From: a phage
Length of the DNA stretch: 64,000 bases
Direction: 5' to 3' (one strand)
Sequence record: PZ445523.1
Position numbers and translations under genes: made by a program
The notes under the pieces: generated by a model
What the model was told of the DNA's origin: nothing
Databases searched by the model: none
What the model saw: the letters and a program-made list of their open reading frames with translations, nothing else
Shown: piece by piece, positions 22,088-63,216 of the stretch
How the letters are laid out: each line of letters begins with the position of its first letter
Numbering within the stretch: the first letter of the stretch is position 1

Positions 22088-22092
22088 ACTGA

Positions 22093-22116
22093 GGGAGCCT
22101 TCGGGTTCCTTTTTTC
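22093..22116 (+). terminator. rho-independent terminator after gene 35
   Basis: GGAGCC-TTCG-GGTTCC hairpin followed by TTTTTTC. Confidence 0.7.
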
Positions 22117-33871: not shown

Positions 33872-33941
33872 ATCCGTATCAGTAGTTGATAGTTGTATAG
33901 TACCACGGTCCTTGTGGTATGTAAACCGTTTTGTGAAATTT

Positions 33942-34499
33942 TTAAATGGAAAGATACCATCCGTTGTAGTTGCTTTTTCTTACAACCTTACGAAGGTCTT
34001 CTCTGTCACCGATGAACTTCGGAGTGTACTGGATGACACCTGGATGAATTTCTTTAGTGTTGAATATAATTATACAGTCAGCGACTTGATGATTTAGAAT
34101 GGGCCCTAGATTTATTCCAGAACCATATGGATACTCTCCGCTGCATCCTGTTGTCACCGAAATCCAACGTGAGTCAGTTTGATGTGTCTTAACTTCTACA
34201 CGAAGCCCACAGTATCTTGGATGTGCTAAAACATCCCATGCATATGTGTACGGATCATCGACATCTTCTTGACCTTTATTGACATATCCACTTAGCCAAT
34301 CTGCCACAAAAAACTCTGCGTACACAGCGATACGGCATCTTTCGATAACTTCTGCTTTATCCTGGTTCGGGTTTTGTTTTAAAGAATATCTTGCTGTATC
34401 AGCAATTTTGACCTTCATTTCACTAGTCAAGTCACTGTTCGATAGGGTAAATGTCGGAATCTGAAATAGTCTCTGTAACCCAGGATTCGTTTTCTGCAT
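33942..34499 (-). CDS. denB: endonuclease IV
   Basis: 185 aa, same as T4 DenB; syntenic upstream of ndd block. Confidence 0.8.
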   Translation of the reverse strand: MQKTNPGLQRLFQIPTFTLSNSDLTSEMKVKIADTARYSLKQNPNQDKAEVIERCRIAVYAEFFVADWLSGYVNKGQEDVDDPYTYAWDVLAHPRYCGLRVEVKTHQTDSRWISVTTGCSGEYPYGSGINLGPILNHQVADCIIIFNTKEIHPGVIQYTPKFIGDREDLRKVVRKSNYNGWYLSI

Positions 34500-34555
34500 T
34501 TAAACTTTCCTTTATGTCGGAATCACTGATATTCATATAATAAATCATAATTTCT

Positions 34556-34581
34556 CTTAAAACAAAAGGGCCGAAGCCCTT
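34556..34581 (-). terminator. C(UUCG)G-type hairpin plus U-tract, copy 1
   Basis: AAGGGC-CGAA-GCCCTT (minus transcript loop UUCG) followed on minus strand by TTTTGTTTT. Confidence 0.55.
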
Positions 34582-34583
34582 AT

Positions 34584-34778
34584 TTATTTGAATTGTGCAA
34601 TTCTTTTCTCTAAACAGTCAGCATAAGATTTCATTGAGATAAACTGCGAAAGCAGCAGTTCTTGCTCAACTGCACTAACTGTTAGAAACTTTGTGCTTTC
34701 TAAAAATTTACTCAGTGCATTAATTTTGAGCATTAATTGATCGTATTCTTCTTTTACTCGTGCTTGATAACCTAACAT
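34584..34778 (-). CDS. hypothetical protein flanked by duplicated hairpins
   Basis: 64 aa ORF; RBS AAGGAAAATT-ATG; bounded by two near-identical GGGCCGAAGCCC hairpins. Confidence 0.5.
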   Translation of the reverse strand: MLGYQARVKEEYDQLMLKINALSKFLESTKFLTVSAVEQELLLSQFISMKSYADCLEKRIAQFK

Positions 34779-34796
34779 AATTTTCCTTAATATGAT

Positions 34797-34812
34797 AAGG
34801 GCCGAAGCCCTT
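34797..34812 (-). other. C(UUCG)G-type intercistronic hairpin, copy 2 (at rIIB stop)
   Basis: Same 21 bp sequence as copy 1; no U-tract. Confidence 0.5.
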
Positions 34813-35749
34813 ATTTAAATTGTTCAGTAACGTCTTCAACTACTTCGTATTGACAGGTACGCATTTTAGCATCGTTGTAATCAATCGGAATTGATACTAC
34901 ATCACGAGGATGAACTTTAACTTTTACAACTCGGCTGGTTGAACTGCCAAAGTGACGAATATAAGATTTAGAACACACATGCAGACCACGAGAACAAGTT
35001 TGTGTATCATCGTCATTCACACGAGTACGTGGCATTTTAACTACTTTACCCGGACTGTTATCAAAGGTGTTTGAGTGACAGTCAAAGTAATTGCTGCGAA
35101 CTACTTTCCAAGCATAGAAGTAACCATCTTCTGTAATTTCAATATCGTTTGCTACCAAGAAATCAAAGAGTCGAGATACCGCTTTTTGGCTTGGGTTTTC
35201 CAGCAGATTTTCCAAGAACGGAAAATAAAATTCAAAGTTTTCGCCTTTTTCCATCGAGTCAAGAATACGATCAACCAAACCAGACCGCAATTCGATATTT
35301 TGATAGAACAAGCTTCCACCTTCAATTCGAACATCGCCGGAAATATATTTTTCAACAGCGCGACGAACATTAATTTTTTGTGCCGCTTCTTCCAGCTTAT
35401 CCGCTACAAGCAGATTAAGAATTTCCTGGAAGTTTGAATGAGTATTAGGAGTTGCGTTATAAGTTACGCCATCAACAGTAATTGAAATGAATTTTTTAGA
35501 TGCATTCCAAATAATGTCAGATTTAGCAACTGGAGCAATAACTGCATCGCTATTAACTTTAACTGTAATATCACCGCTAATAGTAACTTTAGGGTGTTTA
35601 GCATATTCAGCATTTTTCAAAACACGACGAATTGTGTCAACCGATACACCTTGCCAATCAGCCAATTCCTGTTGGGTGTAATTACCACTTGAATACAGTT
35701 TAACAATTTCAGCTTGTTCGTTTTTGGTCAGGCATTTAATATTGTACAT
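34811..35749 (-). CDS. rIIB: rIIB membrane-associated protein
   Basis: 312 aa, same as T4 rIIB; abuts rIIA. Confidence 0.9.
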   Translation of the reverse strand: MYNIKCLTKNEQAEIVKLYSSGNYTQQELADWQGVSVDTIRRVLKNAEYAKHPKVTISGDITVKVNSDAVIAPVAKSDIIWNASKKFISITVDGVTYNATPNTHSNFQEILNLLVADKLEEAAQKINVRRAVEKYISGDVRIEGGSLFYQNIELRSGLVDRILDSMEKGENFEFYFPFLENLLENPSQKAVSRLFDFLVANDIEITEDGYFYAWKVVRSNYFDCHSNTFDNSPGKVVKMPRTRVNDDDTQTCSRGLHVCSKSYIRHFGSSTSRVVKVKVHPRDVVSIPIDYNDAKMRTCQYEVVEDVTEQFK

Positions 35750-35760
35750 AATTTTCCTTA

Positions 35761-37938
35761 TTAGGCCGCAAGGGCCTTCATAGTTTTAGCGATTTGAGAA
35801 ACTTCATCATCACTTAAAGAGTTGCGATAACCGATGAAGTCGGAAACAATACGGAATTTCTTGGTAAACTCAGCAACCATTTTATCACTGTTTTTTGAAG
35901 CATTATTTGATAATACATCAAAAAGATTAGTTACTGTCCAGATGTCATGACCGATGGTATCTTTTCCACCATTAAAATATACACCCTGTAATGAACTAAC
36001 CATATTAGCGAGTCGTGTATATTCTTCAGAAACTTCATCTACACTGAAATACTTCATCATAAAATCTAACTCAGGATACTTGATAATTTTATCAATATAT
36101 CGTTTAGCTGAACTTGAATAACCTACATACTTATCATAATCTACATCATCAAAAGCATCTACATATAAATCACGCAAAGCTTCAAAAATACATTGGCACT
36201 GACCGAGTTCTTTTACCTTTTTCTGTAAAAGCGGACGAATAACATAAAATTCATTAATGCCAATAAGATTAGCCATACGAATCAAAATATTCATAGATGG
36301 ATGACAAAGAGATGTAGTACCATCCATAGAGAAAATATCAGAACGATGCATATACGCTACATAACCAGTAATTTCATCTGCTTCTGACGTAAGTGTAAAT
36401 AGTTCCTCTTTTTCCCATCGCCCGTCTTTAATTTCAAACTTAAATGCTGTAGCAGCTTTAGGACGAGGAGCTTTACTTTTAACTACCTTTGGAATATAGC
36501 TTTTAACTAAAGCTTCAATTTCTGACAAATAATGAATGTTAACTTCATCACTTTCAAACATCGCCATAATGTCAGGAAGCAAATCAATCTGCGATTCTAC
36601 TTCTGGATTAATAAACAGAAGGCGTTCGTTGTGATGAATATTCAAAGTGTTATTAAATTCACTATCATCTAACGCATGCGCTAATCCACGGACAATATTA
36701 ACACGATTTTTAATATTATCAATAACGATATTAATTTTTGTTGTATTAATACCAAACAGACGATAACTTGATGCAACGGCTGAAGTTTCATGACTTTGCT
36801 TAATGCGCTTCAGTCGAGGGTCAAGATTTACTTCATACACAACTCCTGCATTGCATAACTTACTGTCAGGTTCAAACATGCTCTGCATCTTTTTATATGA
36901 CAAATTTTTAGTCGTGAATTTGACTGAATTACTAATCATATAATCTCGAGCAGAATATCCCATCTTCATCAATTCACGATATGTGTGACGAGGAGATGTA
37001 GATTCTTTAAATCGTTTTACATCTTCATTAAATGCTTTCTCACTGAGTTCTTTAACTCGTTCAATGATATTTTTACGAGTACGATCATCTAGTGAAAGAG
37101 CTTCGCGTGATGGAGCAATATCAAGTGAACCCATTGGAAACTTAATGTAATTCACTTCATTGCGGATGCTTAGCCAGTTACGGTCTTTAATAACACCATC
37201 GATAGGATAAACAATACCGCCATAGATAGCATATAATCCACCACGATCAGGCCAGTATCTTTCTGGATTTACGCCGTAATAATCATCAAAATCCGGAAAA
37301 TAATCAATTTCGCGGTCAAGACCATTAATGATAGCCAAATCTTTGAACGGTCGCATGATATAAGAAACTTCATAAGCAAAGTTTCTAAAGTCTTTTTCTT
37401 CAACTGGAACTACGATTTCAATACCAGTTTTATCATCTGGACCCATTTCTTTTACGAATGTAGGTTTAATCTGTGGACCATCACCATCCATGTAAGCTAC
37501 ATAACCACGAATTTCACCTTTATGATACGAAGTAATACTAAACGTATCAGTATAACTAAACGGAGATTTAGAACCTAAACCAAATCCGCCAATAAAGTCA
37601 TTAGATTCAGCCTTAGATGAACTGAAATATGAATTATACAGACCAGGAGAATTATCATCACCTTGAATATCAAAATCACTCATACCCGGACCAAAATCTC
37701 GACAAACAAATCGCGGGTCTAATCGTCCTGGAACTTGAATGATAAATTTTTCAGGATTTCCATTGAGAGCATGGGCATCAATCATGTTGGTAATCAATTC
37801 ACGGACTACTGCGCGAATCTTGTTTGTATACAAATCAGATGACAGAATTTTAAATACTTTAGGAGATGCTGTGATGCTAAATGCTTTTGATTTAGAACCA
37901 TTACCAAGAATTGTTTCTTTTTCAGTAGTGATAATCAT
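35761..37938 (-). CDS. rIIA: rIIA protein
   Basis: 725 aa, same as T4 rIIA; GHKL-like N-terminal ATPase region. Confidence 0.92.
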
Positions 37939-38152: not shown

Positions 38153-38206
38153 TTCAATATCCTCATTTGCCCAATTAATTATACCACATCCTTGTGGTAA
38201 AGTAAA

Positions 38207-40071: not shown

Positions 40072-40094
40072 AAGCTAAAGGCCCGAAGGCCTTT
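40072..40094 (-). other. intercistronic UUCG hairpin downstream of gene 39 start region
   Basis: AAAGGCC-CGAA-GGCCTTT. Confidence 0.45.
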
Positions 40095-50685: not shown

Positions 50686-50708
50686 AATGAAAAAGGACTC
50701 CCGAAGGA
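50686..50708 (-). other. intercistronic UUCG hairpin
   Basis: AAGGACTCC-CGAA-GGAGTCCTT. Confidence 0.45.
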
Positions 50709-50718
50709 GTCCTTAAAT

Positions 50719-56290: not shown

Positions 56291-56653
56291 TTAAAAGAAT
56301 TTAAATTTTTTCTTTGACCTTTTATTAAATGCATCTTGTAGTTGCATTGTAATACATTTTTCTACATGAGGAGCTAACTCAGCTTTTCTTTCTTGGTCAA
56401 GAACAGCAAAGTCCATTACAACCTTTCCATCAACCCAATCCAGTTTTGTTACATACACTATATGTGTAGAACCATCTTCTAGTTTAATGACAATCTCCTG
56501 GATAACATTTTCCATAGCGGATTTAATTATCTTAAGAGATTCATTAAAAAGACGTTCTTTTCTTTCTTCTTCCCCCTCCGAAGAGGGGGATTCATCGATA
56601 ATTTCTAGATCTAAATCTAAATCATCTTTATTCATTAAATTCTTCCATATCAC
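56291..56653 (-). CDS. 40: head vertex assembly chaperone gp40
   Basis: 120 aa frame (likely start at MNKDD, 56635) between uvsX and 41. Confidence 0.6.
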   Translation of the reverse strand: MIWKNLMNKDDLDLDLEIIDESPSSEGEEERKERLFNESLKIIKSAMENVIQEIVIKLEDGSTHIVYVTKLDWVDGKVVMDFAVLDQERKAELAPHVEKCITMQLQDAFNKRSKKKFKFF

Positions 56654-60402: not shown

Positions 60403-60422
60403 GTATGAAAAAGGGACCCGGA
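60403..60422 (-). other. intercistronic hairpin between 43 and imm.1 promoter
   Basis: GGGACC-CGGA-GGTCCC. Confidence 0.45.
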
Positions 60423-60441
60423 GGTCCCTAGATTTATTCTA

Positions 60442-63190: not shown

Positions 63191-63210
63191 CCAAATAAGG
63201 GGCCGAAGCC
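63191..63210 (-). other. hairpin in gene 43 upstream region
   Basis: AAGGGGC-CGAA-GCCCCTT. Confidence 0.45.
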
Positions 63211-63216
63211 CCTTGC

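Follow-up and report, generated by a model that had tools for sequence, protein, structure and literature searches.

The 64,000-nucleotide stretch of phage DNA analyzed here (the window) comes from a T4-like phage of the genus Tequatrovirus, and the 801 bases around the repeat under study are 96–98% identical to those of phages teqhad, T6, T2, and T4T. A 64-aa open reading frame had been predicted at 34584–34778 between denB and rIIB, and both its position and the identities of its neighbors are borne out; we use its name in the T4 annotation, denB.1. The genes of the locus and the two copies of the repeat, A and B, are as follows:

35761–37938, minus strand: rIIA
34811–35749, minus strand: rIIB, 312 aa, with its stop codon at 34811–34813; it ends in the codons CAA TTT AAA TAA, which have a counterpart at the denB.1 3' end
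34795–34817, minus strand: copy A (after rIIB), composed of the 21-bp repeat at 34797–34817 and the hairpin AUAAGGGC(UUCG)GCCCUUAU at 34795–34814
34584–34778, minus strand: denB.1, 64 aa, with its stop codon at 34584–34586
34557–34586, minus strand: copy B (after denB.1), composed of the repeat at 34566–34586, the hairpin AAGGGC(UUCG)GCCCUU at 34566–34581, and UUUUGUUUU at 34557–34565
34432–34548, minus strand: remnant of a DUF7418 gene, 38 aa, whose ribosome-binding site and ATG come after copy B
33942–34499, minus strand: denB (endonuclease IV)

The 64-kb window contains two exact copies of the 21-mer AAGGGCCGAAGCCCTTATTTA, at 34566–34586 and 34797–34817, and no further match when up to three mismatches are allowed (shuffled sequences lead one to expect none). 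On the minus (mRNA-sense) strand both copies fold into AAGGGC(UUCG)GCCCUU with a C(UUCG)G cap, with energies of −10.7 and −11.9 kcal/mol and modest z-scores (−1.7 and −2.6); the exact two-copy repeat and its hairpins in the minus-strand transcript are thus as the original prediction described them. The 5' arm of copy A contains the rIIB stop codon, and copy B begins 2 bases past the stop codon of denB.1. The distance from stem to next ATG is 16–18 nt for both copies (16 nt from copy A to the denB.1 ATG) with a Shine-Dalgarno sequence inside it, such that each module ends at its 3' side in a Shine-Dalgarno and a start codon, TTAAGGAAAATTATG after copy A and TTAAGAGAAATTATG after copy B. A terminator scan finds copy B with its U-tract UUUUGUUUU terminator-like on both strands, and the feature of an intrinsic terminator, a G+C stem followed by a U-tract on the transcribed strand, is present at copy B only; copy A is followed by AUCAUAUU, which offers no U-tract on the minus strand and a T-rich tail on the plus strand.

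The true homologous unit of the repeat is the 16-nt hairpin core only. The 21-nt exact match in the window depends on a 4-nt ATAA spacer past the denB.1 stop codon, and among 15 Tequatrovirus genomes small indels in the A-rich stretch ahead of copy B make the length shared exactly by A and B vary from 16 to 21 nt. When gaps are allowed, the similarity extends over ~50 nt and comprises CAATT(T/C)AAATAA, the hairpin, and TTAAG(G/A)GAAATTATG. Comparison with known RNA families (Rfam) returned only a sub-threshold match to RAGATH-30 (E = 0.54; 20.9 bits versus a cut-off of 59.5) inside denB.1 on the opposite strand, which we take as chance.

Searches with the 64-aa protein identify the denB.1 product as a small helical protein of family PF21825 (crAss001_48-related). 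It scores 69 bits against the Pfam model (cut-off 24.8; E = 3e-19), above the curated gathering threshold, with residues 4–61 aligned to profile positions 3–60 of 61, and it matches phrog_774 of PHROGs (1e-22). The sole match to a solved structure, the coiled-coil protein DAD3 (E = 0.013), was judged spurious, and a literature search for "crAss001_48" found no paper. The neighboring DUF7418 gene encodes 109 aa in T6 and e11/2, and ~215 bp of it are missing in the window phage and in T4.

Both repeats are standard intercistronic C(UUCG)G stem-loops of T4-type phages and are already annotated. It was in T4 mRNA that UUCG tetraloops were first discovered (Tuerk et al. 1988, as summarized in PMC4371310), and Table 2 of the description of the T4-like phage UFV13 includes both sequences among the predicted Rho-independent terminators (PMC5931544), namely a "denB.1" terminator, CAAATAAATAAGGGCTTCGGCCCTTTTGTTTTAA, on the minus strand and an "rIIB" terminator, TCCTTAGTTAAGGGCCGAAGCCCTTATTTAAATT, predicted on the plus strand, the side of the T-rich tail. 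GenBank records of e11/2, D5505, fPS-90, and other phages carry "terminator" features at the same site. Hairpins of this class are frequent: the window contains CTTCGG 30 times versus 13.4 expected and 15 C(UNCG)G hairpins whose stems have four or more pairs, nearly all directly 3' of genes, and a search of the whole T4T genome recovered 26 C(UNCG)G hairpins. The 16-mer AAGGGCTTCGGCCCTT occurs five times in T4T, after rIIB, denB.1, a-gt, 55.3, and uvsW; a sixth copy, after gene 45, has the 14-nt inner core AGGGCTTCGGCCCT in common with these, and other stems recur as well (AAGGGGC..., AAGGCC..., AGGACTCC...). Given that five of the 26 T4T hairpins carry the same 16-mer, identity between the cores of two neighbors is not improbable (~1 in 5).

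The original prediction likened both modules to promoter-early stem-loop (PeSL) modules, which are composed of a stem-loop, a sigma70-like early promoter, a Shine-Dalgarno sequence, and a start codon, and which flank indels between close relatives (PMC2839356, PMC4122927). We searched the window with an early-promoter consensus taken from the PST/T4 pair, TTTACW-N17-TAYWAT, which has 14 matches, all on the minus strand, versus ~1 expected; none lies between 33925 and 38178. The candidate promoters nearest to the locus are:

38178–38206, minus strand: nearest upstream match to the early-promoter consensus, TTTACT-N17-TATAAT, upstream of rIIA and marking the start of the unit
35879–35902, minus strand: MotA-box-like middle promoter, TGCTTCA...TAAAAT, at the 3' end of rIIA and upstream of rIIB, a consensus match only
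33897–33925, minus strand: next match to the early-promoter consensus, just downstream of denB and marking the start of the following unit

The MotA-box-like site is the sole one on the coding strand of the rIIA–denB block, and denB has neither an early nor a middle promoter consensus of its own. A promoter of the form TTTAAA-N16-TATCAT spanning copy A was considered and rejected as weak and at chance level; the segment containing its TATCAT is different in T4. On the basis of these motif searches, rIIA, rIIB, denB.1, the DUF7418 remnant, and denB look like a single early/middle transcription unit, and we infer from the lack of a denB promoter consensus that denB expression depends on read-through of both hairpins. 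The modules do contain a stem-loop capable of termination (both copies fold, and copy B passes the terminator scan) and a Shine-Dalgarno with a start codon at their 3' end. There is no early promoter directly downstream of either stem-loop, and the ORF is not inserted, deleted, or replaced between close relatives, absence of denB.1 being seen only in other lineages, phage NHEP10 and the genus Jiaodavirus. We therefore do not assign either module to the PeSL class, as both lack an early promoter and the 16–18 nt between stem and ATG leave no room for one.

The hairpin after rIIB has a long history. A CUUCGG hairpin is also found at this position in Dhakavirus, Gaprivervirus, Kanagawavirus, Marfavirus, and Winklervirus, with stems that differ (GGAGGC, GGGGC, GGGGAC, and GGAGAC in these genera); in one exception, genome L028, the loop is shortened (GGGGAC-TT-GTCCCC). 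When 17 distinct rIIB-downstream hairpins from eight lineages are aligned, 96% of cells pair and four of the six stem pairs have double compensatory changes. The covariation score of the alignment was reached by none of 500 shuffles, and a control in which the 3' partner was slid by 1–3 columns scores far lower. On the mRNA-sense strand the loop reads CUUCGG throughout the eight lineages, apart from an occasional UCCG or UUUG. The compensatory changes in the stem and the presence of the hairpin in eight lineages indicate that copy A is an ancient RNA structure under selection, already present in the ancestor of the T4-like subfamily; the ancestral state was assigned by parsimony with single-gene identities in place of a species tree.

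Copy B has a much narrower distribution than the gene it follows. With a threshold of at least 80% identity, denB.1 is encoded in ~497 of the ~499 Tequatrovirus records that carry the locus; at 45–59% identity it is also found in Dhakavirus, Gaprivervirus, Kanagawavirus, Marfavirus, and Winklervirus, in the same position between rIIB and the DUF7418 gene with denB next. In the first four of these genera no copy B-like hairpin lies past denB.1, and the denB.1 stop codon lies directly against the next start codon or overlaps it (TAAAATG, TAATG, and similar arrangements); in Winklervirus the junction contains an unrelated GGCC(UGAA)GGCC hairpin. The lack of copy B in four genera that carry denB.1 indicates that copy B is a derived feature, found in Tequatrovirus only, and on this comparison the denB.1 gene most likely predates the second hairpin. 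Four genera with denB.1 and an upstream hairpin only come close to the arrangement that the original prediction had named as speaking against it, that is, relatives that all carry the ORF between divergent, nonrepeated flanks.

The predicted empty site with a single hairpin does exist, in more distant phages: NHEP10 (unclassified) and Jiaodavirus lack denB.1 and have one CUUCGG hairpin with a U-tract between rIIB and the DUF7418 gene. The presence/absence polymorphism expected among T-even relatives, on the other hand, does not. We found no empty site in the ~499 Tequatrovirus records; a synthetic junction composed of the rIIB end, one hairpin, and the sequence downstream of copy B was used as a query against 50,697 phage records, and the best 30 matches were all two-piece matches to occupied sites; and the exact empty-junction pattern had no match in IMG/VR. 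Marfavirus EI, which has denB.1, and Jiaodavirus, which does not, have rIIB proteins that are 83% identical and differ by a precise ATG-to-ATG indel of the ORF beside a single hairpin, which implies that a pair of hairpins is not needed for gain or loss of the gene. Gene conversion between A and B was also considered and rejected, as no derived state is common to the two copies among 15 Tequatrovirus genomes, where the loop of copy A varies (UUCG, UCCG in T6, and UUUG) and that of copy B is always UUCG. We therefore see no sign of ongoing exchange between the copies.

The sequences on either side of the two hairpins suggest how the second may have arisen. Tequatrovirus, Dhakavirus, and some Gapriverviruses share the conserved rIIB C-terminus ...VTEQF..., and Kanagawavirus and Marfavirus the conserved denB.1 C-terminus ...RIA(R/Q)F-stop; these endings in other genera imply that ACAATT(C/T) is native to rIIB and denB.1 alike. 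The AAA TAA extension of denB.1 (a lysine codon and stop, as in rIIB) is restricted to Tequatrovirus, where it is followed by the hairpin and a similar ribosome-binding region. In one genome (L011) the ribosome-binding region after copy B is the same as that after copy A (TTAAGGAAAATTATG) at 15 of 15 positions, and the denB.1 tail of e11/2, GAACAATTCAAATAA, is identical to the rIIB tail of another genome (L012). The left boundary of the duplicated unit is thus a microhomology in coding sequence, not the stem. We infer that copy B arose once, in the ancestor of Tequatrovirus, probably by illegitimate (unequal) crossover at ACAATT(C/T) between the 3' ends of rIIB and denB.1; this event would have copied the rIIB tail, composed of the lysine codon, stop codon, hairpin, and ribosome-binding site up to the ATG, to the end of denB.1. 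Two routes would be equally compatible: a tandem duplication of the hairpin with denB.1, the second copy of the ORF then being lost, or a single crossover joining a variant that has the gene to one with an empty site. The adjacent 215-bp deletion in the DUF7418 gene ends at AAAGGAAAGTTT-like repeats, showing that short-homology events do occur at this locus, and short-homology deletions and duplications in T4 have been described (Singer et al. 1982 and Mosig et al. 1998, as cited in PMC2839356).

The original prediction read the pair of hairpins as the footprint of a cassette inserted by recombination between stem-loops. On this view denB.1 and one hairpin were inserted, or can be excised, in the manner of a PeSL mini-circle. 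This reading gains from NHEP10 and Jiaodavirus, whose denB.1-less layout is that of the A left flank, one hairpin, and the B right flank, from the need of T4 recombination for short homologies only together with the GGGC/GCCC motifs at T4 deletion end points (PMC2839356), and from the PeSL-mediated exchange documented nearby at ndd.4/.5 (PMC4122927). Nevertheless, neither module has a promoter, five other genera hold denB.1 at the same position without the repeated hairpin, the Marfavirus EI/Jiaodavirus difference is an ATG-to-ATG indel beside a single hairpin, the empty site is absent from the ~499 Tequatrovirus records and IMG/VR, A and B have no derived states in common in 15 genomes, and the left edge of the repeat lies within coding sequence. 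Nor does the identity of the hairpins serve as a sign of insertion, given that the same hairpin follows three unrelated T4 genes. We consider a cassette footprint quite improbable; what stands of the idea is that the two copies are probably related by a copying event, and what falls is the recently inserted cassette, denB.1 occupying the same position in genera that lack the second hairpin. Independent recruitment of hairpin B as a short optimal terminator, with no local duplication, is unlikely in our judgment, even though the reuse of the 16-mer and other stems after unrelated T4 genes and the different, independent hairpin at the same junction in Winklervirus show how it could happen. Ribosome-binding sites of the AAGGAAAATTATG form are moreover generic in T4, and with the reuse of the hairpin core this means that part of the A/B similarity could be convergent. 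Against full convergence, the lysine codon and stop, the spacing, and the 15-nt ribosome-binding region shared by A and B lie outside the stem, the three other exact T4T copies (after a-gt, 55.3, and uvsW) have unrelated flanks, and the rIIB/denB.1 pair ranks third of 325 T4T hairpin pairs in flank similarity, ~3.3 SD over the mean; this similarity is not unique, however, as two T4T pairs have closer flanks.

The inverted repeats could instead act in the DNA, as cruciforms or protein-binding sites for recombination, replication, or packaging. Palindromic repeats exist on both strands, copy B is terminator-like on both, and Arbiol et al. speculate on a DNA-binding protein that recognizes GGGG...CCCC stems (PMC2839356). 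The loop, by contrast, reads CUUCGG on the mRNA-sense strand in all lineages, an asymmetry that is meaningful in RNA only, 22 of the 26 T4T hairpins are on the minus strand, the same strand as the neighboring annotated genes, and the compensatory changes maintain pairing and not sequence. An invariant, strand-specific loop on a covarying stem favors a role in RNA over one in DNA, and we regard a DNA-level element as highly improbable.

Taken as a whole, the locus is probably best explained by standard RNA-level stem-loops within one transcription unit, copy A being ancestral and copy B having been copied by a crossover at microhomology. Both hairpins would act at the RNA level. The most likely role of copy B, with its stem and UUUUGUUUU, is that of a leaky (partial) intrinsic terminator or attenuator that also protects the 3' end by blocking 3' exonucleases. 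For copy A the most likely role is to stabilize or insulate the rIIB mRNA 3' end while leaving the denB.1 ribosome-binding site unpaired; we are most cautious about this role because copy A has no U-tract in Tequatrovirus. A literature search found no T4 transcript 3'-end or termination data for the locus.

Hairpins, gene, and hairpin class alike are ordinary, textbook T4 features that were already known, and the locus matters little for discovery; the comparison adds a few small points, namely the age and covariation of copy A, the restriction of copy B to Tequatrovirus, and the position of its junction at a microhomology. The comparative result is of modest value, in that it follows the natural covariation of a single mRNA 3' hairpin cleanly through eight T4-like lineages and dates the second copy to the Tequatrovirus ancestor with a plausible microhomology junction. 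It also cautions that an identical pair of stem-loops in a T4 genome is not automatically a scar of mobility, since the same 16-mer is reused after unrelated genes. A more general notion, which we offer tentatively and think rather doubtful, is that identical UUCG stem-loops spread by copying and not by convergence, the denB.1 junction (ACAATT, then the lysine codon, stop, hairpin, and ribosome-binding site) being one such event. If so, modules of a terminator and a ribosome-binding site would be duplicated to new gene boundaries without promoter or mobile-element machinery, a promoter-less cousin of PeSL shuffling that could explain the five identical 16-mers of T4.

Compared with known systems, the two repeats show essentially no difference from the UFV13 "rIIB" and "denB.1" terminators, which have the same sequences at the same positions; what sets the window apart is that copy A is followed by the ATCATATT variant and copy B preceded by the ATAA spacer, a combination that extends the exact match from 16 to 21 nt. 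Nor do they differ in kind from the C(UUCG)G hairpins of T4 mRNA (Tuerk et al. 1988), with which they share the CUUCGG loop, the C:G closing pair, the short G+C stem, and the intercistronic location on the mRNA strand; to these our comparison adds covariation for one hairpin across eight lineages. With PeSL cassettes the locus has in common a stem-loop, Shine-Dalgarno, and start codon on both sides of a small nonessential ORF, in a region beside a known hyperplastic region; it is unlike them in having no sigma70-like early promoter between stem and ATG, no denB.1 indel between close relatives, and a denB.1 position that is conserved in six genera. As in the short-homology events of T4, the proposed origin of copy B and the 215-bp deletion both involve direct-repeat junctions of 6–12 nt, although the copy B event would be ancient and fixed and is reconstructed by comparison rather than observed.

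CTTCGG occurs 30 times in the whole window versus 13.4 expected, and the window contains 15 C(UNCG)G hairpins, the majority of which lie 3' of genes and are accompanied by U-tracts. Examples of CTTCGG/C(UNCG)G hairpin sites are as follows:

22091-22112, plus strand, hairpin
40077-40094, minus strand, hairpin
50693-50714, minus strand, hairpin
56571-56590, minus strand, hairpin
60412-60429, minus strand, hairpin
63197-63214, minus strand, hairpin

The same hairpin stems are reused at distant loci. In T4T, the T4 genome used for the whole-genome hairpin comparison, both regA and hoc are followed by an AAGGGGC...GCCCCTT stem, and both soc and 30.9 by a AGGACTCC...GGAGTCCT stem. The T4/PST early-promoter consensus TTTACW-N17-TAYWAT is matched exactly at 14 places in the window, versus approximately one expected, and all 14 are on the minus strand; the rIIA-denB block contains none of them.

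906, 12400, 13132, 17019, 27565, 30030, 33169, minus strand, consensus matches
33897, 38178, 42249, 43366, 50650, 54322, 60294, minus strand, consensus matches

The Gaprivervirus VR7 locus (L006) has an additional 163-aa ORF (705-1196) between rIIB and denB.1, and its rIIB is not followed by a CUUCGG hairpin; in the other Gapriverviruses L020, L021, and L023, the hairpin is present and the additional ORF is absent. The VR7 ORF represents a distinct indel at the rIIB/denB.1 junction. The 5' arm of the hairpin after rIIB (copy A) is broken in UGKSEcP1, with TGAC replacing GGGC, and in locus L028 the hairpin loop is shortened (GGGGAC-TT-GTCCCC). In the 1990s T4 entry D16359, copy A has GGC instead of GGGC, which is probably a sequencing compression. 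The T6 record (AP018814.1) names rIIB "baseplate wedge subunit" and places an "attR" misc_feature downstream of denB; both labels look like automatic-annotation errors.

Two small genes lie between rIIB and denB:

34584-34778, minus strand, denB.1, 64 aa, PF21825
34432-34548, minus strand, 38-aa ORF, DUF7418 remnant

Comparison of the 38-aa ORF with the T6 and e11/2 loci identifies its full-length counterpart as a 109-aa DUF7418 gene (PF24193; phrog_2237); T6, e11/2, ECp13, and UGKSEcP1 all retain this gene in complete form. Approximately 215 bp of this gene, flanked by AAAGGAAAGTTT-like direct repeats, are missing from the window and from T4, and Sf22 has lost 22 bp more, including the ATG. 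The DUF7418 gene seems to be degenerating in some members of the genus Tequatrovirus. Database matches place PF21825 homologues of the denB.1 protein also beyond T4-like phages, in a 72-kb Klebsiella phage, an Erwinia jumbo phage, a Sinorhizobium phage, and crAss-like Bacteroides phages, where they are labelled "shock protein C". In several PHROG families the profile is longer, and the denB.1 domain aligns to its C-terminal portion; a search for a solved structure of the denB.1 protein found none.

Each of the two hairpins is followed by an initiation region:

34546-34560, minus strand, AAAUUAUGAUU
34776-34790, minus strand, AAAAUUAUGU

Both match quoted targets of the translational repressor RegA, which are given as AAAUUAUGAUU at gene 44 and AAAAUUAUGUAC at rIIB (PMC3014915). 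RegA may therefore regulate both denB.1 and the DUF7418 gene, and such regulation could explain part of the right-flank similarity of the two hairpins.
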